Below are positions 5,864 to 40,446 of a stretch of 40,446 bases of DNA, one piece after another; within the stretch, counting starts at the first letter, position 1, and each line of letters opens with the position of its first letter. A model generated the notes under the pieces. It was given only the letters and a program-made list of their open reading frames with translations. It had not been told where the DNA came from and ran no database searches. The stretch spans positions 1-40,446 of the forward strand of contig JACOTS010000052.1 of the NCBI GenBank assembly GCA_016178265.1, written 5' to 3'. The translations under genes were made by a program, and so were the position numbers. The DNA comes from Candidatus Melainabacteria bacterium (GTDB taxonomy: Bacteria; Cyanobacteriota; Vampirovibrionia; 2-02-FULL-35-15).

Positions 5864-5894
5864 CCAATCCTCAATCCCATTATAATAGAAATCA

Positions 5895-7649
5895 ATGCTA
5901 ACTCAACTTACCATTTCAAACTTTGCGATAATTGATGAACTAGAAATTAATTTTAATAGTGGTTTGATCGTACTAACAGGTGAAACAGGTGCAGGAAAAT
6001 CAATAATTATAGATGCATTGGATTTTTTATTGGGGGCAAGGGGAAGCTTAGATTTTATAAAAAATGGTACAAGCAAAGCAAAGGTAGAAGGGATTTTTGA
6101 AATTAGTGACAAACTTTCAAGAATCTTACATAATTGGTTTAAAGAAAATGGTTTTGATGAGCTCGATAGTCAAAATCAATTAATAATCTCAAGAGAATTA
6201 TCACAAAATGGCTCTAAAGCAAAAATTAATGGTTCAATTGCTAATCTTTCACATCTTACCTATGTCAGGGAATATATTTTTGATATTCACGAACAAAGCA
6301 GTCATATTGATTTGCTAAAGATTGAAAAGCAAATTGAAATATTTGATTCTTTCGGAGATATTAGCCATCAAAAGCTTTTAAGTAGTTACAGAAATTTATT
6401 TGAAGAATTTACAATCATAAAAAATAGGCTAAACAGTCTTACAGAAAGCTCAGAAGAAATTGCAAAAAAAATGGATTTCTTAAAATTTCAAATAAATGAA
6501 ATAGAAGAAGCAAATATAAGTGATTTAAAAGAAGAAGAAACCTTGCTTGAACAAAGGAAAAAGCTATTAAACAGCAAAGAACTGTATGACAATGCTTCAA
6601 AAATAAATGAGTTAATAAGTGGCGAAAATCCTTATAACCTAACAAAGCTACTTACAGAAATCAAAAAACTAATTGCAAGCTCAAGCTCTTTTGACATATT
6701 GTTTGAGCCTTATAAAGAAGTTATTGAATCTGCTAGTGATAGCATGAAAGATTTATCCTCATTTACATCAAGTTACACAGAAACCATTCAAGAGCCTGGT
6801 GAAAACTTAGATGAAATAGAAGATAGGCTTGATACTTTTTACAGACTAAAGAAAAAATACGGAAATACTCTTAAAGATATAAAAGGATCTTTAGAAAAAA
6901 TGGAAGATGAACTAACAACATATACAGATCCAAGAAAATCTAAAGAAAGTTTAGAAAAGGAATATAAACAAAGAGAAGAAGAGATTAATCTGCTTGCAGA
7001 CAAATTAACCAGATCAAGAGAAAAGCTAGCACAAGAATTTGTAAATAAAGTTAATGAGGAGCTTTTAACTTTAGGATTTAAAAGTAAAAACAGCTCAAGT
7101 AATTTTCCTTTATTTGTAGTTGAGTTCTTAGATTGTCCTTTAAGCAAATGTGGCAAGGAACAAATTCAATTTTTGTTTACAGCAAATCCTGATGAAGAGC
7201 CAAAACCCTTGTTAAAAGTAGCATCTGGTGGTGAGCTTTCCCGAATAATGCTTGCAATTAAGTCACTTGTAGGTTCTTTTGGATTTATAAATACAAAAAC
7301 CATGGTTTTAGATGAAATAGATATTGGGATAAGTGGAGAAATTGCATCTTCTGTAGCAAAAAAATTGTATAAGATTTCAAGAAGCAATCAAGTTATTTGC
7401 ATAACACATCAACCCATTGTTGCAGCAATGGCTGATGAACATTTTGAGGTAATAAAAGAGATAGAAGATGGTACTACTTTTGTCAATATAAGGCAACTAG
7501 CAAATGATGAAAGATGGAATGCCTTAGTTTCACTACTTGCACCAGAGTTAAAATCAAAAGAAATTTCTCATGATGCAAAACAATATGCAAAATCTCTGTT
7601 AGATAATGCAAATAAAATAAAAAACAAAAAAGAAGATGCATTAATATGA
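5895..7649 (+). CDS. recN: DNA repair protein RecN
   Basis: N-terminal Walker A (GETGAGKS), long coiled-coil middle, C-terminal SGGELSRIMLAIK signature and Walker B (LDEID). Confidence 0.9.
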   Translation: MLTQLTISNFAIIDELEINFNSGLIVLTGETGAGKSIIIDALDFLLGARGSLDFIKNGTSKAKVEGIFEISDKLSRILHNWFKENGFDELDSQNQLIISRELSQNGSKAKINGSIANLSHLTYVREYIFDIHEQSSHIDLLKIEKQIEIFDSFGDISHQKLLSSYRNLFEEFTIIKNRLNSLTESSEEIAKKMDFLKFQINEIEEANISDLKEEETLLEQRKKLLNSKELYDNASKINELISGENPYNLTKLLTEIKKLIASSSSFDILFEPYKEVIESASDSMKDLSSFTSSYTETIQEPGENLDEIEDRLDTFYRLKKKYGNTLKDIKGSLEKMEDELTTYTDPRKSKESLEKEYKQREEEINLLADKLTRSREKLAQEFVNKVNEELLTLGFKSKNSSSNFPLFVVEFLDCPLSKCGKEQIQFLFTANPDEEPKPLLKVASGGELSRIMLAIKSLVGSFGFINTKTMVLDEIDIGISGEIASSVAKKLYKISRSNQVICITHQPIVAAMADEHFEVIKEIEDGTTFVNIRQLANDERWNALVSLLAPELKSKEISHDAKQYAKSLLDNANKIKNKKEDALI

Positions 7650-9167: not shown

Positions 9168-9425
9168 ATGCCAAAAGATACTATTGAATTTGAAGGAGTG
9201 ATAAAAGAATCATTACCCAATGCAATGTTTAGAGTAGCACTTGACAATGGGCATTTAGTATTAGCACATGTATCTGGAAAAATAAGGAAACACTTTATTA
9301 AAATACTACCTGGAGATAGGGTAAAAGTAGAGCTTACTCCTTACGATTTAAATAGAGGTAGAATAATTTACCGTGTTCAAGAAAAAAGAAGGGGAGCCGG
9401 GTTATCAGAAGAAAATGAGAATTAG
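9168..9425 (+). CDS. infA: translation initiation factor IF-1 with a ~13-aa C-terminal extension
   Basis: [11 protein letters not shown]...MFRV...[14 protein letters not shown]...[14 protein letters not shown] is classic IF-1. The track start at 9159 is in frame 9 nt upstream. The tail [14 protein letters not shown] runs into repeat-like DNA. Confidence 0.9.
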
Positions 9426-9430
9426 AGGTC

Positions 9431-9651
9431 GCAAAACAATTTGTAGGATTTGTCCAATTTACTTGGCAAATCCGGTAAGGCGAAAATAAGGAAGGAACGA
9501 GCCGAGTGTTCGCACGAGACGAGCAAAATAAAGTGAGGAAAGACAAGGATAAAATCGGAGAAGAAAAAATAAGCTTTTTGTGTGATTCATTCACCAAAAA
9601 GCGTCGAGAAAGGGGAGCGAGCTGAGCATTCGTGCGAAGCGAGCGGTAAAA
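9431..9651 (+). repeat. structured repeat cassette, two tandem type-1 units
   Basis: Unit 1: hairpin H 9446-9473, GA hairpin S 9495-9526. Unit 2: H 9573-9602, S 9615-9646, then TAAAA and the rpmJ ATG. The reverse complement closely matches 14250-14398 and 12468-12550. Confidence 0.9.
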
Positions 9652-9765
9652 ATGAAACACAGAGCATCAGTAAAAAAATTATGTGCAAAGTGCAAAATTA
9701 TAAGACGCAAAGGCCGGGTAGTGGTTATTTGCGAAAATCCTAAGCACAAGCAAAAACAGCATTAA
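9652..9765 (+). CDS. rpmJ: 50S ribosomal protein L36 (not in the ORF track; 37 aa)
   Basis: Manual translation gives [37 protein letters not shown], the L36 zinc-ribbon pattern, in the canonical position after infA. Confidence 0.9.
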
Positions 9766-10553: not shown

Positions 10554-10963
10554 TTTAAAGATACTGGCGCAGTAAACAGTGAGTGATTTCTCTCACGCTC
10601 TTCTTGTATACGACTTCTAACAAAAAATGGATTTCCATATGCCAGTGCTGCTTGTGTAGCAATTACACCTTCTCTTACAGGGGTTGGCATTCTGGATGCA
10701 GGGTCTATTATTTCGTTAGCTTGAGTAACTGTACCAAAGTTTGTTCCATGAATATCATCATGTGTAGGAGTATTAGCTATTCTGCTAAATCCAATATGTA
10801 CTGGAATTGAATTTCTTTGAGCAATATTTACATGTGAAGAGGTTATGGCTTGAGGCCTAGTATTGTTAAAAGGATATCTTTGAACTGGTTGAACTCTTTC
10901 TTGTTGAGCAAGAGCTCTTAAGTCATTTATTCTTGTATTTGGAAATCCAACCGGTGCTATCAA
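10550..10963 (-). CDS. hypothetical protein (137 aa)
   Basis: TTG start at 10963 with GAGGAG 8 nt upstream. No family recognised. Converges on xth with a 4-nt overlap. Confidence 0.45.
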   Translation of the reverse strand: MIAPVGFPNTRINDLRALAQQERVQPVQRYPFNNTRPQAITSSHVNIAQRNSIPVHIGFSRIANTPTHDDIHGTNFGTVTQANEIIDPASRMPTPVREGVIATQAALAYGNPFFVRSRIQEERERNHSLFTAPVSLN

Positions 10964-11090
10964 TGTACTATCTCCTCAATAGGAAAATTGTCTTATACAT
11001 AGGACATTTAGTCAAGTGATTGACCCTCAAACTGTGTAAAAAAGTTTATTTAACCTATGTTTAAACTTAATTTAACCAAGTTTTAACCAA

Positions 11091-12467
11091 TTACTTCAGC
11101 ACATTCACCATATCCACGACGGTTTTTTTGGCATCTCCAAATATCATCATGGTTTTTGGCAGATAAAACAATTCATTTTCAATTCCTGCAAATCCTGCTG
11201 CCATTGATCTTTTTAGAAAAATAATTGTTTTTGCTTTATCTACATCTAATATAGGCATTCCATAGATTGGGCTTCCTGGATTATTTTTTGCTGCAGGATT
11301 TGTAACATCATTTGCACCAACAACAAGTGCCACATCAGCTCTTTCAAATTCTGTGTTAATTTGATCCATTTCATAAAGTTTTTCATAAGGCACATTTGCT
11401 TCAGCAAGAAGAACATTCATATGGCCTGGCATACGTCCTGCAACTGGATGGATTGCATATTTTACTTCAACTCCTTTGGCTTCAAGCATATCAGCAAGTT
11501 CTCTTAAATTATGCTGTGCTTGAGCAACTGCAAGTCCATACCCAGGAACAATTATTACTTCATTTGCATTTTCAAGCACGATCTGTGCATCATCTACAGA
11601 ATATCCTTGAACTGATTTTGCTTTTCCATTGGTTGCAGCTGTTGCAGAAGCTTCAACTTTTCCAAATGCACCAAACATAACATTAGTCAGGGACCTATTC
11701 ATTGCTTTGCACATAATTCTAGTTAGTATCATTCCTGATGCACCAACAAGTGCCCCTGTTACAATTAGCGCATAATTTGAGAGTGCAAAACCAGCAGCAC
11801 ATGCAGCCATTCCTGAATATGAGTTTAAAAGTGCTACAACAACAGGCATATCTGCTCCGCCTATCGGAAGCACAAGAAAAATTCCAAGTGAAAATGAAAT
11901 AGCACATATTACCCCTGCCCATAAAATGTGTTCAGGATGCATAAAAAGAAAAATTGCACCTGTTACAATCACAAAAAACTGAAGCAGATTTAATGTTTTT
12001 TGAAATGGATATGTAACTGGTTGTCCTGTAACAATTCCCTGAAGCTTTCCATACGCTACAAGACTTCCGGAAAAAGTAATAAGTCCTATGACTAAAGTAA
12101 TTAAAATTGTAGATATTTCATAAAGAGTTGGAGTTGGATAAAGCCTTACATACTCAGATACAACTACAAGTGCTGAAGCAAGACCTCCATAGCCATTAAG
12201 AAGCCCAACCATTTGAGGCATCTCTGTCATTTTGACTGTTACTGCAAGAAACGCTCCGATAGCTGAACCAAGTATAATTCCAATTATTATAAGCTGATAA
12301 TTTATTACATTTCTCTCAAATAAAGTTGCACAGATTGCAATTAACATTCCAAATGCTGAAAGAAAATTTCCATTTCTTGCAGTCTTTGGATGACTAAGCA
12401 TTTTTAAACCAAGAATAAATAAAACTGCTGAAATTAAGTATGATATGTAAATTATGTTCTCTCGCAT
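11091..12467 (-). CDS. pntB: NAD(P) transhydrogenase subunit beta
   Basis: Multi-TM N-terminus and a C-terminal dIII NADP(H) domain (VPGYGLAVAQAQH...HPVAGRMPGHMNVLLAEA...GANDVTNPAA). Confidence 0.95.
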   Translation of the reverse strand: MRENIIYISYLISAVLFILGLKMLSHPKTARNGNFLSAFGMLIAICATLFERNVINYQLIIIGIILGSAIGAFLAVTVKMTEMPQMVGLLNGYGGLASALVVVSEYVRLYPTPTLYEISTILITLVIGLITFSGSLVAYGKLQGIVTGQPVTYPFQKTLNLLQFFVIVTGAIFLFMHPEHILWAGVICAISFSLGIFLVLPIGGADMPVVVALLNSYSGMAACAAGFALSNYALIVTGALVGASGMILTRIMCKAMNRSLTNVMFGAFGKVEASATAATNGKAKSVQGYSVDDAQIVLENANEVIIVPGYGLAVAQAQHNLRELADMLEAKGVEVKYAIHPVAGRMPGHMNVLLAEANVPYEKLYEMDQINTEFERADVALVVGANDVTNPAAKNNPGSPIYGMPILDVDKAKTIIFLKRSMAAGFAGIENELFYLPKTMMIFGDAKKTVVDMVNVLK

Positions 12468-12595
12468 TTTTTAATACCGCTCGTTTCGCGCTAACGCTCA
12501 ACTCGCTTTTTTCCTCCAGCGCTTTTTGGTGAATGAATCACACAAAAAGCTTATCTCTCCTTTTTCCCTAGTTTCTATCTCTTACCTCTTATCTC
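12468..12595 (-). repeat. structured repeat cassette, type 1, fills the pntAB-pntB spacer
   Basis: In RNA (minus) orientation: heptads 12573-12600, H 12521-12550, GGAGG (revcomp of 12513-12517), S 12477-12506, UAUUAAAAA, then the pntB AUG (12467). Confidence 0.9.
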
Positions 12596-12880
12596 TTATT
12601 TCTTCTTAAACATCTTAAGCATACGATCAGTTACTGTATATCCACCAACTACATTTATTGTTGCAAAAACTATTGCTACACACCCAAGAACAGTAGCTAA
12701 GTTTGTTTCCCCATATCCTGCAGATAGAAGTGCACCAACAACCGAGATGCCAGAAATTGCATTGGAACCTGACATAAGAGGAGTATGCAATGTAGGTGGA
12801 ACCTTGGTAATAACTTCAAACCCAACAAAAATTGCAAGTACAAGAATATAAAGTGTAATTAAAAATTCTCCAAATATCAT
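12596..12880 (-). CDS. pntAB: NAD(P) transhydrogenase subunit alpha part 2 (membrane part)
   Basis: 94-aa hydrophobic protein with HTPLMSGSNAISGI, the typical split alpha2 subunit, between pntAA and pntB. Confidence 0.9.
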   Translation of the reverse strand: MIFGEFLITLYILVLAIFVGFEVITKVPPTLHTPLMSGSNAISGISVVGALLSAGYGETNLATVLGCVAIVFATINVVGGYTVTDRMLKMFKKK

Positions 12881-13091
12881 TTTAATATCGCTCGTTTCGC
12901 ACGAATGCTCAACTCGCTTTTCCTTCCCGGCGACTTTTGCCGAGTAAATCGGACAAAAGTCTTAGGTTTTTTCTGATTCCTATTTCCTAATTCCTATCTC
13001 CTTATTTTATACCGCTCGCCTCTTCGCTTTTACCTTTTTCTTTTCCCATTTTCCCTGATTCCTATCTCCTAGCTCCTATTTCCTATCTTTT
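12881..13091 (-). repeat. structured repeat cassette, type 1 plus a partial second unit, fills the pntAA-pntAB spacer
   Basis: S 12888-12917, H 12932-12961, heptads (TCCTAnn)x4 at 12978-13005, a partial ACCGCTCGCC unit at 13011-13030, and heptads x4 at 13060-13087. The pntAB AUG (12880) follows GAGCGAUAUUAAA. Confidence 0.9.
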
Positions 13092-14249
13092 TTAATGCAC
13101 CTTTGCAAGTAAATGTTTAATGTCTTCTTTTAATACTACCCCCTGATGAGTAATAAGCGCACCTTTTATAATCTCATCATTTAAATCTAAATTTAGCAAT
13201 TTATCTTTTACGAGAAGCGAAATCACACTTTCCATGTTTTTTGAAAACATTTGGCTTGCATGCATTGGCATAGAAGATGGCAAATTAATTGGACCACAAA
13301 TCTTTACACCGTTTTTTATTACATCTTTTCCAAGTTCAGTAAGTTCACAATTCCCTCCCATATCAGCTGCCAAATCAACAATTACAGAGCCTGGTTGCAT
13401 GCCCAACACGGCTTTTTCACTAATTAAAACCGGTGCTCTTTTCCCTGGAATTTGTGCTGTAGTTATAACCACATCAAATCTTTTTATCTGCTCTGCCATA
13501 AACTCTAGTTCTCTTTTGTGGCTATCGCTGGAAAGCTGTTTTGCATATCCGCCTTCCCCTTCTGTTTTTTCTCCCTTTAAATCAAAAGAAACAAACCTTG
13601 CTCCTAAGCTTTCTATTTGTTCTTTTACTACAGGTCTTGTATCAAAAGCTTCTACAACAGCACCTAGTCTTCTTGCTGTTGCTATTGCTTGAAGCCCGGC
13701 AACACCAGCTCCAATTACAAATACTTTTGCAGGTGCAATGGTACCTGCTGCAGTCATAAACATTGGAAAAAACTTAGGCAAATTAGCTGCTGCAATTAAA
13801 ACCGCTTTATAGCCTGCTATTGTACTCATAGCACTTAAGACATCCATACTCTGTGCTCTTGTAATCCTTGGAATACTGTCAAGAGAGAAAGCTGATATTT
13901 TTCTAGAAACAAGTCTTTGTATCCCGTCCACATTAGTTGCTGGTTGAAGCAAAGAAACTAAGCAACTCCCTTCTTTCATCATATTAATTTCATACTCGTC
14001 AGCTTTTTCGTTAAACTCTGGTTTATTGATTTTCATTACCAGATCTGCCGATGCAAATAGTTCCATTGGACTTTTAACAATTTCTGCACCTGCTTCTTTA
14101 TAATTTTCATCAAAAAAGTATGCGGCTTGCCCGGCATTTTGTTCAATTAATACCTGAATACCCTTGCTAGTGATTTTCTTTACGCTTTGAGGAATTAGCG
14201 CAACCCTTGTTTCATTTTGAATGATTTCTTTTGGGATACCGAGTTTCAT
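13092..14249 (-). CDS. pntAA: NAD(P) transhydrogenase subunit alpha part 1 (dI, NAD(H)-binding)
   Basis: MKLGIPKE..NETRVA start, alanine-dehydrogenase/PNT fold and the Rossmann motif VIGAGVAGLQA. Confidence 0.95.
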   Translation of the reverse strand: MKLGIPKEIIQNETRVALIPQSVKKITSKGIQVLIEQNAGQAAYFFDENYKEAGAEIVKSPMELFASADLVMKINKPEFNEKADEYEINMMKEGSCLVSLLQPATNVDGIQRLVSRKISAFSLDSIPRITRAQSMDVLSAMSTIAGYKAVLIAAANLPKFFPMFMTAAGTIAPAKVFVIGAGVAGLQAIATARRLGAVVEAFDTRPVVKEQIESLGARFVSFDLKGEKTEGEGGYAKQLSSDSHKRELEFMAEQIKRFDVVITTAQIPGKRAPVLISEKAVLGMQPGSVIVDLAADMGGNCELTELGKDVIKNGVKICGPINLPSSMPMHASQMFSKNMESVISLLVKDKLLNLDLNDEIIKGALITHQGVVLKEDIKHLLAKVH

Positions 14250-14420
14250 CTTTTACCGCTCGCTTCGCACGAATGCTCAGCTCGCTCCTTATTTTCGACG
14301 CTTTTTGGTGAGTGAATCACACAAAAAGCTTATTTCCTACTTTTCTACTTTATCGGATTTGCTGGATAAACCAGACAAATCCTACAAATTGTTTTATGCT
14401 CTGATCTTCTTCTGATTCCT
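14250..14420 (-). repeat. structured repeat cassette (type 1) forming the pntAA 5' leader
   Basis: S 14256-14285 (same core as 9617-9646), H 14300-14329, a second H 14355-14382, the shared TACAAATTGTTTT edge, and a pyrimidine tail up to 14420. GAGCGGUAAAAG precedes the pntAA AUG. Confidence 0.9.
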
Positions 14421-14424
14421 CTTC

Positions 14425-14452
14425 ATTATAAATTTAATCATAAACATTGTAA
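14425..14452 (-). promoter_or_regulatory. sigma70-like promoter candidate for the pnt operon
   Basis: On the minus strand: TTACAA (14452-14447), 16-nt spacer, TATAAT (14430-14425). The cassette at 14250-14420 would then be transcribed as leader. Confidence 0.4.
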
Positions 14453-14483
14453 AAGTATTGTTATTTTGAAAATTAACTTATAG

Positions 14484-14622
14484 GATAACTGCTCACCTAA
14501 TAGAAGCAATCTTGTGGGTGACACCGGAAGGGAGGGGGTCCATGAGCAAGGTACGTAGCTCATGGAGGGTGACCTGTAGGTGGCAGGACCCACTAAGTTA
14601 TAGCTAGCAAGGTGAGCAGTTA
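14484..14622. other. 139-nt long imperfect hairpin (candidate structured RNA or MITE-like element), class unknown
   Basis: A perfect 13-bp closing stem ATAACTGCTCACC/GGTGAGCAGTTAT. Inner stems CTTGTGGG/CCCAC(T)AAG and CCATGAGC/GCTCATGG. GC-rich core. A partial third copy of the arm (GGTAACTACTCACC) sits at 14756-14769. Confidence 0.35.
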
Positions 14623-14635
14623 TAAAAGGAACTTT

Positions 14636-14659
14636 TGTACATTCGTACAAGTCTATAAA
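14636..14659 (+). promoter_or_regulatory. palindrome TGTAC-ATTC-GTACA (LexA-box-like) next to a TATAAA -10 candidate
   Basis: Perfect inverted half-sites at 14636-14649, 4 nt upstream of TATAAA (14654-14659) and about 270 nt upstream of lexA. It resembles the GTAC-N4-GTWC LexA box type reported for cyanobacteria (from memory). Confidence 0.3.
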
Positions 14660-14806
14660 ACTGGTCAAGCAAGTGGTAGCTAGCAGCTTACCCAATAATC
14701 TTGCATTTTTACTCCTCAAATACTTAAAACGCTAGCTACCGACCATTAAATTATGGGTAACTACTCACCATCTATAAAATGACCACTATAGCAATTTATC
14801 AGGAAA

Positions 14807-14921
14807 GGTTTTGTCCGACTTGTTCGGCAAAACCTGGACATCGTGGTAAGAAGCAAATATCTAGTGCACTCTGGAAAGGTGGCGAGCAAGTTATGAGCGA
14901 GCCACCTGAGTAAAAACAATT
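14807..14921 (+). repeat. structured repeat cassette, type 2 (long variant), lexA leader
   Basis: H 14807-14834 (GGUUUUG-U-CCGA-CUUGU-UCGG-CAAAACC), a middle block shared with 20338-20379, and S-like 14878-14906 (GGTGGCGAGCAAGTTATGAGCGAGCCACC). TGAGTAAAAACAATT then leads to the lexA ATG. Confidence 0.8.
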
Positions 14922-15503
14922 ATGGCAACAGAACTTACAGAAAACCAAACCGGATTTTTAAACGGGCTTAAAAAGCAATACAGAAAAACCCCGCTTCCAT
15001 CCATAAGACAAATAGCAGAAGATCTTGGTTTTAAATATCACAATTCTGTTCAACACTATCTTGAAATATTAATGTTTCAAGGCATTATTAAAAAAATCGA
15101 TGATTTTTTATATCTAGATAAAAATTTGTTTGGTTTAAAGATCTTTGATTCCAGGGTACCTGCAGGGCTTCCTGCTCAAAGCGATGATAGCTATGAAGTT
15201 TTTGATTTTGATGAATTCATGAACATTGATAATGAGAGAGGATTTATGCTTAGGGTCTCCGGAGATTCTATGATAGACGCTGGAATACATGATGGTGATT
15301 TAATTACAGTAGATACAAAAATCAGGCCCACACATGGGCTTATAGTTGTTGCAATAGTAGATGGTGGTTATACAGTTAAGTACTTACGCAAAAAAGGAAA
15401 TAAATATTATTTAAAAGCAGCTAACCCAAAATATAATGATATTCACCCAGAGCATGAGTTTAAGGTGGTTGGTGTGGTAACCGGTTCTATCCGTAAATTT
15501 TAG
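14922..15503 (+). CDS. lexA: LexA repressor
   Basis: N-terminal winged HTH, an Ala-Gly cleavage site (VPAGLPA), and the S24 peptidase Ser (SGDSM) and Lys (TVKYL). Confidence 0.9.
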   Translation: MATELTENQTGFLNGLKKQYRKTPLPSIRQIAEDLGFKYHNSVQHYLEILMFQGIIKKIDDFLYLDKNLFGLKIFDSRVPAGLPAQSDDSYEVFDFDEFMNIDNERGFMLRVSGDSMIDAGIHDGDLITVDTKIRPTHGLIVVAIVDGGYTVKYLRKKGNKYYLKAANPKYNDIHPEHEFKVVGVVTGSIRKF

Positions 15504-20242: not shown

Positions 20243-20305
20243 TATCCCTTTGTTTTTGTTACTGCCTACCTAACACTAGAAGTTCCAACTAAACTACTAC
20301 AAGGT

Positions 20306-20420
20306 AAGATTTTATCCGATTTATTCGGTAAAATCTTGATAGCAATGCTAAGAAGTACATAATATGTGCACTTTGCAAAACCGGCGCAGCTCATTCGTGA
20401 GCAAGCCGGTGGTAGGCAAA
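20306..20420 (+). repeat. structured repeat cassette, type 2 (long variant)
   Basis: H 20306-20337 (AAGAUUUUA-U-CCGA-UUUAU-UCGG-UAAAAUCUU), a middle block homologous to 14835-14877, and S 20380-20410 (ACCGG..GCTCA-TTCG-TGAGC..CCGGT). Followed by GGTAGGCAAAAA. Confidence 0.8.
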
Positions 20421-20511
20421 AATATCCCTTTATTACGCCTAATTCTACATATTTAGTGATTATCTAATAAAAAGAAACTCAAGTAAATTTTTTACCGTCT
20501 TACTTTAAGTT

Positions 20512-28922: not shown

Positions 28923-28953
28923 CTCTGATCTCTGATTCTCTGATTCTCTGAAA
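28923..28953 (+). repeat. tandem 7-8-nt repeats (CTCTGAT(T))x4 abutting the tRNA 5' end
   Basis: CTCTGAT CTCTGATT CTCTGATT CTCTGAAA, ending 1 nt before the tRNA-Arg. The same CTGATTC word occurs in the cassette tails at 12973-12979, 13055-13061 and 14413-14419. Confidence 0.8.
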
Positions 28954-28954
28954 C

Positions 28955-29029
28955 GGGCCCTTACCTCAGCCTGGATAGAGGACATGGCTACGAACCATGG
29001 CGTCAGGAGTTCAAATCTCCTAGGGCCCT
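28955..29029 (+). tRNA. tRNA-Arg (anticodon ACG)
   Basis: Manual cloverleaf: acceptor GGGCCCT/AGGGCCC, D stem CCTC/GAGG, anticodon stem CATGG/CCATG with loop CTACGAA, T arm AGGAG-TTCAAAT-CTCCT. No encoded CCA. Confidence 0.9.
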
Positions 29030-29030
29030 A

Positions 29031-29159
29031 ACTTAAATAGCCCAGCAAGCAAAGGATTTTCTGTTAAGTGAAAATCCGGAGCGTCGAAAATTAATATAGA
29101 CCATACCAGATAATGCAAAGTTGGTTTTAGTCTCTGCTAAAACCAGCGGTTATAAAAGC
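29031..29159 (+). repeat. 129-bp insert built of cassette-like modules between the tRNA and its duplicated 3' half
   Basis: Hairpin 29054-29077 followed by GGAGCGTCGAAAA (compare the cassette linker GCGTCGAGAAA). Hairpin 29122-29145 followed by GCGGTTATAAAAG (compare the cassette 3' end GAGCGGTAAAAG). Confidence 0.6.
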
Positions 29160-29208
29160 ACATGGCTACGAACCATGGCGTCAGGAGTTCAAATCTCCTA
29201 GGGCCCTA
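29160..29208 (+). repeat. exact 49-nt duplicate of the tRNA-Arg(ACG) 3' half (matches 28982-29030)
   Basis: Base-by-base identity from the anticodon stem through the acceptor end plus 2 nt. It ends 1 nt before the stop codon of the convergent gene. Confidence 0.9.
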
Positions 29209-30619: not shown

Positions 30620-30788
30620 TGAAAGCCTCCAATACTAATTTTGTCAGCAAATTATAATATTTGGCTACTAGGAGCTTCAAAGCTTAAGAATTTTTAATCT
30701 CAAGCTTAGGTAAGAGCAGTTTATGTGCAAGTGAACTGGTGATAGGTAGAAACGAAAAATCAGATTGTTAAACGATTGTTATTTTTTA

Positions 30789-37501: not shown

Positions 37502-39112
37502 TTACATTCTAAATACACCGTGCTCTTTAGCTTTTATAGATGAATTGAAAGCAGCAGAAATACAATTTGCAAGAATTTTTCTTGTATCAATTGGATCTAT
37601 TATCCCATCATCCCAAATCCTTGCAGTACTATAGTAGCAACTGCTTTCTTCTGTATACTTCTCAAGAATAGGTTTTTTAAATTCTTCTTCTTCCTCCTGT
37701 GACATAGACGGTTCACCCTTTGCTACAAGTCCATCTTTCTTAACCGTCAAAAGCACACTTGCTGCCTGTTCACCACCCATAACTGAGATTCTTGCATTTG
37801 GCCACATGAATAAAAACCTAGGAGAGTATGCTCTGCCACACATCCCATAATTTCCCGCACCATAAGAACCACCTATAATAACTGTAAACTTCGGCACATT
37901 TGCATTTGCAACAGCCTGCACCATCTTTGCTCCATTTTTGGTTATTCCTCCGGCTTCAAAATGGCTACCAACCATAAATCCAGCTATGTTTTGCAAAAAT
38001 AAAAGCGGGATATTTCTTTGGCTGCAAAGCTCTACAAAATGTGTTGCTTTAAGCGCGCTTTCAGCAAATAAAATTCCATTGTTAGCTAATATTCCAACCG
38101 GATAACCATAAATTCTTCCAAAGCCACAAACAATAGACTTTCCATAAAGAGCTTTAAATTCATGAAACTCACTACCGTCAACAATTCTAGCTATAACCTC
38201 TTTGACATTATAAAGTCTTCTTGGATCTTTATTAATTATTCCATACATTTCAAGCGGATTATATAGAGGTTCTTTAGATTCTCTAATATCTGGTTCTGTT
38301 TTTTTCTTTAAATTTAAATTCTCAATTATGTTTCTGGTTATTCTTATCGCATGATCATCACTATCTGCGCAGTGATCTGTTACCCCTGATTTTCTACAGT
38401 GAACATCTGCACCACCTAAATCCTCTGCACTAACTTCTTCCCCTGTTGCTGCTTTAACAAGAGGAGGACCTCCTAAAAAAATAGTACCTTGTTTTTTTAC
38501 AATGACTGACTCATCGCTCATTGCAGGCACATATGCACCACCTGCAGTACATGAACCCATAACAACTGCTATTTGAGGAATATTTGCTGCTGACATTCTT
38601 GCTTGGTAATAAAAAATTCTTCCGAAGTGTTCTTTATCAGGAAAAACATCTGCCTGTAGAGGCAAAAATGCACCACCAGAATCTACCAGGTAAACACAAG
38701 GCAAATTATTTTCCATTGCTATTTCTTGAGCACGAAGATGCTTTTTTACAGTTATAGGATAATAAGTTCCGCCTTTAACAGTTGCATCATTTGCTACTAT
38801 AACCACTTCTCTGCCATGTACCTTTCCAATGCCTGTCACTATACCTGCACAAGGTGCATCATTGTTGTATAAATTAAAAGCAGCTAGGGATGAAAGTTCT
38901 AAAAAACCAGATCCCTTATCAACAAGAGTCTCAATCCTTTCTCTTGCAAGCATTTTTCCTCTTTGCTTGTGCTTTTCAATGGCTTTTTGTCCACCACCTT
39001 GTTTAATCATTCCAACTTTAGATTTAAGTTCAAATACAAGTTCCTCCATATAAGCCCTGTTTTCCTGAAAAGCAGGGTCCTTTGAATTAACATTTGTTTT
39101 TAAAACATCCAT
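37502..39112 (-). CDS. liuB: methylcrotonyl-CoA carboxylase, carboxyltransferase (beta) subunit
   Basis: 536-aa carboxyltransferase with two crotonase-like halves. The sequence is of MCCC2 type ([22 protein letters not shown]..., [13 protein letters not shown]...). Confidence 0.9.
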
Positions 39113-39162
39113 TCTTTCTACCTACCGCCTGCTCGCTCATAATTCACTGTTACGATCACGCT
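39113..39162 (-). repeat. cassette S-module variant (type 2) forming the MCCase beta leader
   Basis: Minus-strand RNA: ...GAAUUAUGAGCGAGCAGGCGGUAGGUAGAAAGA-AUG. The 12-mer TTATGAGCGAGC is identical to 14891-14902 in the lexA leader copy. Confidence 0.65.
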
Positions 39163-39643: not shown

Positions 39644-40446
39644 GTGTTTTTGGATCATTTAAGAAGCTCTCTGATATCTTTTTGGATCGATAGCTCCGGT
39701 GGTCCAGAAAAATTATGCAAACAATCTTTTTTTAGTATAAATCCAAAGTACTACTTATATGGCTCCTTAAATGAAATCACGTTGGAAGATTGTGAAACTG
39801 GAGCAATTTCATACATTCCCGGAAACTGTTTTGATACTCTCGAAGAAAAATTGAAAGAGGAGAAGAAAAACAAAAATGGCATCTTTGTGGGTTACGTATC
39901 ATATGATTTGTTCAAAGCAAATTTAAAGGCGATTAGGTATCCCAATTTTTTCTTTGCTTTTTTCGACAATTATTCCACATTCGATCCTAATCTCTTAGCT
40001 CCCAATCCTCTTGCTTCTTATCCCTTACCTCTTACCTCGATTTCTTCTAACATGAGTGATGAAGAATATTTAGAAAAAGTAAAACAAATAAAAGAAGAAA
40101 TCAAAGCTGGCAATGTTTATCAAGTTAATTTAACTAGAGAGTATTCAATTCTAAGCTCTAAGCTCCAAACTCCAAACTCAGAACTGGATCTTTATTTCAA
40201 CCTGAGAGAAGTTTCTCCAAATCCATATGGATGTTTCTTTAAAACTCCTTTTGTAAGTATACTTTCTAGCTCACCTGAGGAATTTCTCTATATAGGACCA
40301 GCCGCCCAACAGAGTTGGGCGAGCCTTGCCACTCCTCAATCCTATATTATTCGTACTCGCCCAATTAAAGGAACTCTTCCAAAAGGAATACATAACATTG
40401 ATCCAAAAAACAAAGCAGAAAATTTAATGATTGTTGATCTTGAAAG
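39644..40446 (+). CDS. pabB: aminodeoxychorismate synthase component I (partial, runs off the window)
   Basis: Manual translation in the frame of 39644 (GTG) gives ...GIFVGYVSYDL...AGNVYQVNLTREY...SSPEEFL...RTRPIKGTLPKG...NLMIVDLE. Absent from the ORF track because there is no stop in the window. The start codon is uncertain (GTG 39644 or TTG 39650). Confidence 0.8.
   Translation, partial: MFLDHLRSSLISFWIDSSGGPEKLCKQSFFSINPKYYLYGSLNEITLEDCETGAISYIPGNCFDTLEEKLKEEKKNKNGIFVGYVSYDLFKANLKAIRYPNFFFAFFDNYSTFDPNLLAPNPLASYPLPLTSISSNMSDEEYLEKVKQIKEEIKAGNVYQVNLTREYSILSSKLQTPNSELDLYFNLREVSPNPYGCFFKTPFVSILSSSPEEFLYIGPAAQQSWASLATPQSYIIRTRPIKGTLPKGIHNIDPKNKAENLMIVDLE
40016..40036 (+). repeat. heptad array (TCTTATC CCTTACC TCTTACC) in frame inside pabB
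   Basis: Same heptad type as the cassette tail at 12573-12600 (TTCTATC TCTTACC TCTTATC TCTTATT). 21 nt equals 7 codons. Confidence 0.6.
40151..40185 (+). repeat. five tandem heptads (CTAAGCT x2, CCAAACT x2, CAGAACT) inside pabB
   Basis: Read directly from the sequence. Encodes ...LSSKLQTPNSEL... in a variable segment after YQVNL. Confidence 0.7.
40296..40343 (+). repeat. GC-rich hairpin-containing segment in frame inside pabB
   Basis: GACCAGCCGCCCAACAGAGTTGGGCGAGCCTTGCCACTCCTCAATCC. Stem GCCCAA/TTGGGC (40304-40320), a GCGAGCC word, and a CTCCTCAATCC tail. It lengthens the segment before RTRPIKGT. Confidence 0.5.

Follow-up and report, generated by a model that had tools for sequence, protein, structure and literature searches.

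A modular two-hairpin repeat fills the intercistronic spacers of the pnt operon in a groundwater Melainabacterium

Repeats known from inside bacterial operons usually lie after genes. The classic ones that alter the relative expression of neighbouring cistrons are the intercistronic repetitive extragenic palindromes (REPs), single G+C-rich palindromes of 20-40 nucleotides (nt) that RAYT transposases mobilise and that are found in either orientation, usually behind stop codons. Co-transcribed intergenic miniature inverted-repeat transposable elements (MITEs) can alter mRNA fate in bacteria (PMC3184786), and the plastid intercistronic expression element (IEE) is a short portable sequence that makes downstream cistrons stable translatable units (PMC2230500). 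Tandem 7-nt TAACTGA repeats of Beggiatoaceae, Cyanobacteria and Bacteroidetes are located just ahead of start codons, including those of ribosomal-protein operons, with no functional pattern among the downstream genes and with canonical ribosome-binding sites (RBSs) rare; a role in translation has been suggested and is unproven (PMC4679880). In the T4 genes 38 and 25, a hairpin shortens the Shine-Dalgarno (SD) spacing from 22 to 5 nt and from 27 to 11 nt, respectively (PMC3014915). Here we analyse a 40,446-nt stretch of DNA (the window) from a Candidatus Melainabacteria bacterium (assembly GCA_016178265.1, contig JACOTS010000052.1), in which a cassette composed of a heptad array and two hairpins occupies both spacers of the transhydrogenase operon pntAA-pntAB-pntB.

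The copies at pnt and between infA and rpmJ very probably belong to a single dispersed, modular intergenic repeat from a mobile family of groundwater Melainabacteria, which is not specific to pnt. Its conserved core is well supported as two hairpins of RNA or single-stranded DNA: H, with a variable stem in a fixed architecture, and S, which is nearly invariant. That the cassette additionally supplies the initiation region of the downstream cistron is a tentative proposal, to which we give somewhat less than even weight, and the explanation as a whole, repeat identity together with initiation mechanism, stands in our judgement at about even chances.

All three pnt cistrons are encoded on the minus strand. 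An NCBI contig of a metagenome-assembled genome (MAG; GCA_016196635.1) carries identical pnt genes with the domains AlaDh_PNT_N/C, PNTB_4TM and PNTB. Coordinates from the list of open reading frames (ORFs) bear out the gaps of 211 and 128 nt given in the preliminary description of this DNA, and neither spacer has a listed small ORF of 40 amino acids (aa) or more.

13092-14249, minus strand: pntAA, 385 aa, first cistron (ORF list; AlaDh_PNT_N and AlaDh_PNT_C on the identical gene call)
12881-13091: spacer 1, the pntAA-pntAB gap, 211 nt
12596-12880, minus strand: pntAB, 94 aa, second cistron (ORF list; PNTB_4TM)
12468-12595: spacer 2, the pntAB-pntB gap, 128 nt
11091-12467, minus strand: pntB, 458 aa, third cistron (ORF list; PF02233 PNTB)

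Read in mRNA sense, each spacer proceeds from heptads to hairpin H, a purine linker, hairpin S, an A/U-rich tail and the AUG of the next cistron, in the same order of parts that had been reported before. The count of one cassette per spacer holds for spacer 2; spacer 1 contains about 1.5 units, with an upstream array and a remnant of S. The parts are as follows (period-7 calls from Tandem Repeats Finder, TRF).

13053-13087, minus strand: spacer 1, heptad array a, GAUAGGA AAUAGGA GCUAGGA GAUAGGA AUCAGGG (TRF period 7)
13004-13031, minus strand: spacer 1, remnant of an upstream unit, AAAAGCGA-AGAGG-CGAGCGGUAUAAAAU (alignment of copies)
12973-13003, minus strand: spacer 1, heptad array b (TRF period 7 at 12977-13007)
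12932-12961, minus strand: spacer 1, hairpin H, GACUUUUGUCCGAUUUACUCGGCAAAAGUC (fold; covaries with other H variants)
12918-12931, minus strand: spacer 1, purine linker GCCGGGAAGGAAAA with SD-like AAGGA
12890-12917, minus strand: spacer 1, hairpin S, GC GA GUU GA GCA UUCG UGC GA AAC GA GC (fold and pair statistics)
12881-12889, minus strand: spacer 1, A/U-rich tail GAUAUUAAA, abutting the pntAB AUG
12566-12595, minus strand: spacer 2, heptad array, GAGAUAA GAGGUAA GAGAUAG AAACUAGGG (TRF period 7 at 12576-12604)
12521-12550, minus strand: spacer 2, hairpin H, GCUUUUUGUGUGAUUCAUUCACCAAAAAGC (fold and covariation)
12507-12520, minus strand: spacer 2, purine linker GCUGGAGGAAAAAA with SD-like GGAGG
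12479-12506, minus strand: spacer 2, hairpin S, GCGAGUUGAGCGUUAGCGCGAAACGAGC (fold and pair statistics)
12468-12478, minus strand: spacer 2, A/U-rich tail GGUAUUAAAAA, abutting the pntB AUG

The heptads start at the upstream stop codon in both spacers, comprise about four copies in each (period-7 arrays at 12576-12604, 12977-13007 and 13060-13088) and have a purine fraction of 0.70-0.73. A UAG or UAA recurs at 7-nt intervals and shuts each of the three frames within 26 nt; stops fall at spacer positions 7, 14, 21 and 28 in array a of spacer 1 and at 5, 12, 19 and 26 in spacer 2. The remnant in spacer 1 retains the S flanks and the tail and has lost the hairpin. H consists of 8 bp, a 1-nt bulge, 4 bp and a 5-nt loop, and the linker measures 14 nt in both spacers, with the patch GGAGG in spacer 2 or GGGAAGGA in spacer 1. 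ViennaRNA predicts that H and S both form in both spacers and leaves the tail and the AUG unpaired. A further period-7 array, CCTCTTA repeated 4.6 times and thus the reverse complement of the purine heptads, is found at 39985-40045 on the plus strand inside an ORF that resembles aminodeoxychorismate/anthranilate synthase component I and runs out of the window; translated in frame as ...DPNLLAPNPLASYPLPLTSISSN..., it may be a heptad array taken into a coding linker.

Although first described from the two pnt spacers, the cassette also fills the 5' untranslated region (UTR) of pntAA and the spacer between infA and rpmJ, the latter with two units, which brings the full copies in the window to five.

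14250-14382, minus strand: pntAA 5' UTR cassette (repeat family, fold and covariance model, 102.6 bits), with H' 14355-14382, H 14300-14329, linker 14286-14299 (AAGGAG), S 14258-14285 and tail GGUAAAAG 14250-14257
9446-9651, plus strand: infA-rpmJ spacer, two units (covariance model, 101.4 and 53.3 bits), with H' 9446-9473, S' 9497-9524, H 9573-9602, S 9617-9644, tail GGUAAAA and the rpmJ ATG at 9652

Repeat finding recovers a core of about 92 nt directly repeated ahead of the pntAA ATG (14254-14345) and inverted ahead of rpmJ (9548-9651). A degenerate S pattern matches five times in the window against 0.00 expected, and a covariance model of the H-S core scores four copies at 99-103 bits (E ~1e-21; ~5e-21 for the two pnt spacer copies) and the fifth at 53 bits; its remaining matches in the window are H-like hairpins only. 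All five copies face the downstream gene. S ends 7-11 nt ahead of the ATG of pntAA, pntAB, pntB and rpmJ, while the fifth copy precedes another unit. In the minimum-free-energy fold of 9497-9644 (plus strand), S' pairs with S across about 120 nt and encloses H instead of forming two hairpins, which suggests that tandem cassettes may take alternative long-range structures. The infA gene next to it (9168-9425, plus strand, 85 aa) seems to extend about 13 codons beyond the usual end of IF-1 into purine-rich sequence, ending at TAG.

S is a 28-nt rod of the form GC-GA-GYY-GA-GYR-UUNG-YRC-GA-RRC-GA-GC, in which three short Watson-Crick stems alternate with two symmetric GA/GA internal loops, which we take to be tandem sheared G.A pairs. 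Covariation was assessed on 53 diverse copies, with slid partners and shuffles for comparison. Standard pairing is found in 95.4% of base-pair cells versus 30-45% with slid partners, changes on both sides occur in 93 cells versus 22 +/- 4 in shuffles, and 12 of the 20 pairs display compensatory change. Among 102 unique cores there are 14 variants of S. Judged only at positions left free by the search pattern, its two apical pairs are Watson-Crick in every variant (CG in 9 and UA in 5; AU in 6 and GC in 8), the two other free pairs in 12/14 and 13/14; the G.A/A.G positions are invariant in all 14. H occurs with at least 10 stem sequences, each of which still yields a hairpin of 10-14 bp. This strong covariation indicates that the structure of both hairpins is under selection. 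Purine-purine mismatches become destabilising pyrimidine mismatches on the opposite strand, and the G.A positions of S therefore weakly favour the mRNA strand as the one under selection. Rfam 15 returned only two tRNAs for the whole window at gathering score, and permissive scans of 12440-13120 and 14240-14930 gave noise only (E >=0.98).

How the cassette is placed in the lineage of the window was read from copies with the tail that lacks terminal inverted repeats (TIRs), recovered in a metagenome scan; they have 32-36% G+C, and many come from JGI metagenome 3300025142. The unit always comprises heptads (TAGGARA), H, the purine linker, S and GRTAT(A)n. It is likewise well supported that the repeat spreads without TIRs in this lineage and builds up immediately before start codons. 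For 18-20 unique copies, a real ORF that is co-oriented with the cassette has its ATG 7-14 nt beyond the end of S; about half of the copies are intercistronic and half lie in 5' UTRs. Three more copies precede another unit and two adjoin tRNAs. According to Pfam, the downstream genes encode EF-P, YidC, RF1, ribosomal protein L20, RsmE-type and FtsJ/TlyA-type RNA methyltransferases, a GlpD-like oxidoreductase, a FliQ-family export protein and a glycosyltransferase. The genes behind the cassette, among them rpmJ, rplT, efp, prfA and yidC, are mutually unrelated and have no functional theme, and one copy, read by eye, is situated between apparent rplO and secY. A cassette that stands ahead of so many unrelated start codons is not a device specific to balancing transhydrogenase subunits. 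A replication-strand bias is an unlikely cause of its orientation, since the opposite-strand copies at infA-rpmJ (plus) and pnt (minus), 3 kb apart, each follow their own gene.

The same core travels in sister genomes. A scan with the exact S pattern, using one genome per species, returned 82 stretches, about 70 of which are from groundwater Candidatus Melainabacteria MAGs (nzgw190, nzgw193, SSGW_16, NC_groundwater_946 and RIFCSPLOWO2_02_FULL_35_15), the others being G+C-rich chance matches in other phyla. MAG nzgw190 alone holds 43 exact-pattern copies and nzgw193 another 17; a metagenome scan with a slightly relaxed S pattern added 30 matches. In these two sister MAGs the H-S core is the cargo of a MITE of about 122 bp (113-125 bp, mostly 122-124, in 48 copies) with the inverted ends GTTACTGCCTAGC...GGTAGGTAGAAAC. 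Its 8-bp flanks agree at 6.4 of 8 positions on average versus 3.0 for permuted partners, and at 6 or more positions in 39/48 copies versus 2.6 expected, which identifies target-site duplications (TSDs); the duplicated site has a TTAA one base to its 5' side. We know of no named element with this TIR sequence and 8-bp TSD. At gene boundaries the MITE is found in mixed orientation, with 14 copies immediately ahead of a co-oriented start and another 14 immediately behind a convergent stop, and in one case (L070) the start codon of a 275-aa ORF is part of the TSD (AAAAAATG); the MITE form thus appears to insert into A/T-rich start and stop regions. Within 8-kb loci, whose flanking ORFs were read by eye, no TIR pair encloses an ORF and no transposase adjoins a copy. 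No autonomous transposon was found in these loci, the TIR pairs enclosing only other small cargo of 164-173 bp; a phage vector was rejected, the scan of viral contigs having given no match to the cassette.

Two sites in the window resemble this MITE. At 20251-20424 (plus strand), a 174-bp element has MITE-like ends GTTACTGCCTACC...GGTAGGCAAAAA, an 8-bp target duplication (ATCCCTTT) and a cargo of its own, made up of an H-like hairpin, a palindrome and a further hairpin that is S-like and has a UUCG loop; comparable elements of 164-173 bp devoid of S are present in L065, L067 and L185. At 39113-39140 (minus strand), GAGCGAGCAGGCGGTAGGTAGAAAGA abuts the ATG of a 536-aa gene (37502-39112) and looks like the remnant of a MITE 3' end that now serves as its leader. 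A third form, without TIRs and ending in GGTATAAAAA, is found in SSGW_16, nzgw193 and NC_groundwater_946 beside tRNA genes, at a distance of 10-18 nt and in most cases directed towards the tRNA 3' end. In the window, the tRNA-Arg(ACG) gene at 28955-29029 (plus strand; region 28923-29208) has an array of CTCTGATT repeated 3.8 times in front of it. Behind it come, in this order, a 127-nt insert that contains two hairpins and a cassette-like tail (AGCGGTTATAAAAGC) and, at 29157-29208, a stretch that repeats the final 52 nt of the tRNA at 98% identity and is not itself called as a tRNA. The arrangement resembles a miniature element that has integrated at the tRNA and duplicated the 3' part of the tRNA, and may bear on how the tRNA-adjacent form without TIRs moves.

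At pnt, the copies are well supported by sequence comparison as having been gained after the split from relatives with abutting cistrons. The preliminary description had stated that pnt cistrons normally abut or overlap, and this is indeed the case in homologous operons with PntB at 74-83% identity, whose cistrons are separated by -4 to 26 nt apart from one gap of 65 nt and one of 69 nt.

nzgw193: pntAA-pntAB gap 1 nt, pntAB-pntB gap 65 nt
nzgw190: pntAA-pntAB gap -4 nt, pntAB-pntB gap 14 nt
NC_groundwater_946: pntAA-pntAB gap 26 nt, pntAB-pntB gap 9 nt
JACPSL: pntAA-pntAB gap 16 nt, pntAB-pntB gap 17 nt
Relative with 83% PntB identity: pntAB-pntB gap 21 nt
Relative with 79% PntB identity: pntAA-pntAB gap 69 nt, pntAB-pntB gap 22 nt

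No spacer in the relatives' pnt operons is of cassette size, and the covariance model finds no full core in them; weak H-like matches of 30-35 bits are located outside the spacers, downstream of pntB in L086 and upstream of pntAA in L089. The 65-nt pntAB-pntB spacer of nzgw193 (L084, 3936-4000) holds another hairpin-forming insert, ATTGTGA...TCACAAT around GCGAGGAGCATAAGCGACGAAGC, which is faintly S-like and is not detected by the model. By contrast with these relatives, strain L091, whose PntB is 99% identical, has cassettes at the same three pnt sites. Its coding DNA is 96.4-98.5% identical to that of the window, whereas the orthologous cassettes share only 86% (upstream of pntAA), 65% (pntAA-pntAB) and 76% (pntAB-pntB). 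The pntAA-pntAB cassette of the window is 88% identical to the pntAB-pntB cassette of L091, and within the window the pntAA cassette and the rpmJ-proximal one show 90% identity. The infA-rpmJ spacer of L091 differs by a whole unit, containing H' and the tail only at about one-third of the window's length (by eye), and its map-infA gap of about 135 nt (6257-6391) gives a weak match to the cassette model versus about 20 nt and no match in the window. These comparisons suggest that the pnt sites are kept filled but with changing cassettes, exchanged either through gene conversion between copies or through insertion more than once.

Among the described repeats close to the cassette are MITEs such as Correia/CREE of Neisseria, ERIC/IRU of Enterobacteriaceae and Yersinia, RUP and BOX of Streptococcus pneumoniae and Nezha of cyanobacteria, which are likewise hairpin-forming, non-coding, multi-copy and intergenic, at about 100-170 bp. 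The cassette unit of about 125 nt is short, non-coding and multicopy, with stops in all frames; we take its modular build to recall boxA-B-C elements. The nzgw190 and nzgw193 copies share TIRs and TSDs with MITEs, and the window copies have neither: the pnt and rpmJ cassettes begin with heptads and end with GRTAT(A)n, with no inverted termini, and the pnt cassettes are flanked by the upstream stop codon and the ATG, with no direct repeat around them. Unlike MITEs, moreover, the window cassettes take up the interval from stop to start completely and include a heptad array, and nearly all those of the lineage are co-oriented and end at a fixed 7-14 nt from the ATG. REP/BIME elements (REPIN), for example at malE-malF and hisJ-hisQ, are also dispersed imperfect palindromes between operon cistrons, and a GTAG-like motif adjoins the hairpin in the MITE form (GGTAGGTAG); the GTAG version of the REP head GT[AG]G is present in the MITE-form terminus only. 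The cassette departs from REPs, each a single short palindrome and often found in inverted pairs, in having two non-homologous hairpins in fixed order and one orientation, before starts. No inspected flanking ORF (40-kb window and short loci) is transposase-like. An IS200/IS605-derived PATE lacks TIR and TSD, has subterminal hairpins at both ends and inserts 3' of a fixed tetra- or pentanucleotide; the two hairpins and the absence of TIR and TSD would fit, a conserved 5' target motif was not observed, and cassettes less than 5 kb apart on opposite strands (infA-rpmJ on plus, pnt on minus) each point the way of their gene. TAACTGA/STRR heptamers resemble it as tandem intergenic 7-nt units on the mRNA strand upstream of a start; here, however, the unit is TAGGARA, purine-rich and SD-like, and the array is about 95 nt away with two hairpins in between, whereas TAACTGA repeats are within a few nt of the start. 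The plastid IEE has no sequence similarity to the cassette and acts through a protein-defined processing site. The cassette is related to, and would work like, co-transcribed MITE- or REP-type repeats (PMC3184786). We found no published description of it; the one paper mentioning both Melainabacteria and MITEs is a general insertion-sequence survey. What is new is the combination of modules, the invariant double-G.A hairpin and the near-exclusive, phase-fixed placement before starts in one lineage, with a canonical MITE form in its sisters.

Whether the cassettes are part of one pnt transcript bears on any role in expression. The best sigma-70-like site found by a promoter scan of 10900-15000 is upstream of the pntAA cassette:

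14425-14453, minus strand: promoter-like site TTTACA-N17-TATAAT, 11/12 matches

It is the probable promoter of the operon. Separate promoters downstream of the cassettes, which would leave them out of the mature mRNA, are not apparent: the scan detected no promoter-like site in either spacer, and S and the ATG are only 9-11 nt apart in both. A terminator scan of the two spacers was likewise negative. A single pnt mRNA would accordingly carry three cassettes, one ahead of each cistron. Between this promoter and a divergent lexA-like gene there is a non-coding stretch of about 480 nt (14440-14920) of higher G+C, with an H-like hairpin at 14809-14832 and a GGTGGCGAGC...GAGCGAGCCACC hairpin adjoining the lexA start; about 216 nt of it are swapped for about 97 nt in L091, and it has no Rfam match.

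The preliminary description had placed the cassette exactly where translational coupling or reinitiation would be decided. This stands, as the whole stop-to-start interval is filled, and initiation of pntAB and pntB must consequently occur on the cassette. We examined anti-SD pairing with a threshold of -6 kcal/mol or better in the classical window as SD call. None of 18 unique start-proximal cassette genes has such an SD, compared with 9/28 control genes of the window. Instead, the best anti-SD match is found 30-46 nt upstream, at the 5' foot of S, in 18/18 of these unique copies; an SD-like patch sits at this foot in 85% of start-proximal copies. The linker duplex reaches -6.3 kcal/mol in spacer 1, ending 39 nt ahead of the pntAB AUG, and -9.3 kcal/mol in spacer 2, ending 44 nt ahead of the pntB AUG. 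As in T4, the patch is too far away linearly, and looping out the 28-nt S would cut 34-46 nt to about 7-17 nt. The spacing obtained would be 7-11 nt only where AGGAG abuts S, with 7-8 nt at pntAA and rpmJ. About half of the window genes have no SD, and several of these starts show TATAAT 7-10 nt ahead of the ATG (1766-1779 and 5878-5894, for the genes starting at 1780 and 5895), which suggests leaderless or very short-leader mRNAs in this organism.

We favour, tentatively, the following sequence of events. The cassettes would be transcribed within one pnt mRNA from the promoter-like site at ~14453-14425, each insertion having destroyed an ancestral stop/start coupling junction. The heptads would close three frames, so that upstream translation terminates there, and the downstream cistron would be initiated de novo on the 3' end of the cassette. 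S may fold as a compact rod, and the unstructured A/U tail of 7-11 nt would then put the AUG at a workable distance from the purine patch, resulting in a split RBS of the kind seen at T4 genes 38 and 25. The A/U tail may also, or instead, support SD-independent initiation, which the many SD-less genes of the window suggest is common here. We propose that the cassette is tolerated inside operons because it has no terminator in this orientation and brings its own start region. Any change in the PntAA:PntAB:PntB ratio would be a by-product.

Several observations weigh against such a role in initiation. At pntAB and pntB the effective spacing is about 12-17 nt, long for a classical SD and suboptimal compared with the ~5-11 nt of the T4 type; the T4 sites are, in addition, single conserved loci with mutational proof, while the cassette arrangement is read from sequence and concerns a repeat at dozens of loci. 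The enrichment of SD-rich linkers ahead of starts is significant (p ~1e-4 to 3e-7) but confounded by lineage: 5/7 lineage copies that are not start-proximal have such a linker too, so that it follows lineage rather than context and offers no independent evidence of selection on translation. The mixed orientation of the MITE form implies that the core has no intrinsic need to face a start codon. No transposase was seen by eye beside any inspected copy of the form without TIRs. The mismatch counts of the hairpins (G.U 5 versus A.C 4) do not tell the strands, or RNA and single-stranded DNA, apart. Finally, co-transcription, folding in vivo and any effect on translation are steps that we infer.

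The most serious competitor is a purely selfish or neutral repeat that survives where it is harmless, ahead of genes that begin SD-independently on any unstructured A/U-rich leader, its hairpins serving its own propagation and no host function. We regard this as unlikely, though it has much in its favour: mobility of the family is evident from the TSDs, orientation is mixed in the sister genomes, turnover is fast with copy number varying between strains, relatives manage without the cassette, about half of the window genes lack an SD in any case and the downstream genes have no common function. It accounts less well for the very regular placement in the lineage, co-oriented and with tails of 7-14 nt even in ribosomal-protein operons, for the high frequency of the SD-like patch at the foot of S in start-proximal copies, and for the occupation of the three pnt sites in both strains despite the change of variants; purifying selection on tolerated insertion sites could nevertheless explain much of this.

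The opposite extreme, a self-propagating portable module for initiation or insulation that takes over start regions, goes beyond the initiation role favoured here and seems to us distinctly doubtful. It would mean that a transposon family has rewired initiation genome-wide, that coupling and native RBSs have been replaced at dozens of genes including ribosomal-protein operons, and that the invariant S is a functional RNA that bridges the SD to the AUG or binds a common factor.

A cassette for RNA processing or stability is improbable. Here a cut in the linker or heptads would leave H capping the upstream 3' end and S the downstream 5' end, producing separately stable and translatable units like those at the malE-malF REP, at Yersinia ERIC and at the plastid IEE. 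Two stable covarying hairpins around an unstructured purine linker fit this scheme, as do the positions between cistrons of several operons and beside tRNA genes, where processing enzymes act, and there are precedents (PMC3184786, PMC2230500). Yet we identified no cleavage-site motif, a 5' hairpin protects only at the very 5' end, and 5' UTR copies such as that of pntAA have no upstream cistron to protect. Very improbable, in turn, is a platform on the heptads or S for a global post-transcriptional regulator (S1, CsrA-like, Csp-like or a dedicated factor). It would agree with the near-invariance across genomes of S, including both tandem G.A motifs, while H drifts, with the fixed phase of the heptads and with a similar proposal for heptamers just ahead of starts in Beggiatoaceae and cyanobacteria (PMC4679880); on the other side stand the lack of a functional theme downstream, MITE copies that have the same S in either orientation and after stop codons, and the failure to identify a candidate protein. 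The preliminary description's idea of a pnt-specific coupling or reinitiation device for balanced subunits, for which the occupation of both internal junctions in two strains speaks, is hardly credible given the same cassette ahead of unrelated monomeric and ribosomal genes (rpmJ, rplT, efp, prfA, yidC and others) and of pntAA itself, the mobility of the core in sister genomes, the cassette-free pnt operons of relatives and a variant at a given pnt junction that is not kept between strains 96-98% identical in coding DNA.

Other identities were discarded on simpler grounds. A hammerhead-like reading of S (GA, stem, GAA) fails for want of the CUGANGA core, judged by eye, and of an Rfam match. 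A promoter in S and tail (TTGAGC-19-TATAAA), or a leaderless start from it, is contradicted by a -35-like hexamer that is not conserved (CTGAGC, CCGAGT), by the 19-nt spacer and by a -10-like box only 1-3 nt from the ATG, from which a transcript could not start at or before the AUG. A terminator or attenuator is contradicted by the lack of a terminator-like site and of a U-run following H on the mRNA strand, and an integron attC by the absence of the R''/L''...L'/R' core sites (RYYYAAC...GTTRRRY) and by flanking genes that belong to conserved syntenic operons. The same or a variant cassette in independent NCBI, JGI, ENA and Logan assemblies excludes an assembly artefact.

The placement of the family is of interest under either outcome. 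Members of a repeat family whose mobile form is proven lie almost exclusively within the 100-200 nt that precede starts, where they fill whole gaps in conserved, normally tightly coupled operons (pntAA-pntAB-pntB, infA-rpmJ, upstream of rplT and, by eye, probably rplO-secY). If the cassette does supply the start region, it would be a natural portable RBS or insulator, would illustrate how essential operons can be entered by a mobile element and stay intact, and would offer a testable handle on initiation in Melainabacteria, an uncultured sister group of Cyanobacteria with, in this window, many SD-less genes. If it is merely tolerated junk, it marks the operon positions able to absorb more than 100 nt of structured RNA. 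The cassette variants are in addition a useful strain-level marker. A possible further small element of the window, at 30663-30753 on the plus strand, ends in GATAGGTAGAAAC and contains an AAGCTT...AAGCTT hairpin.

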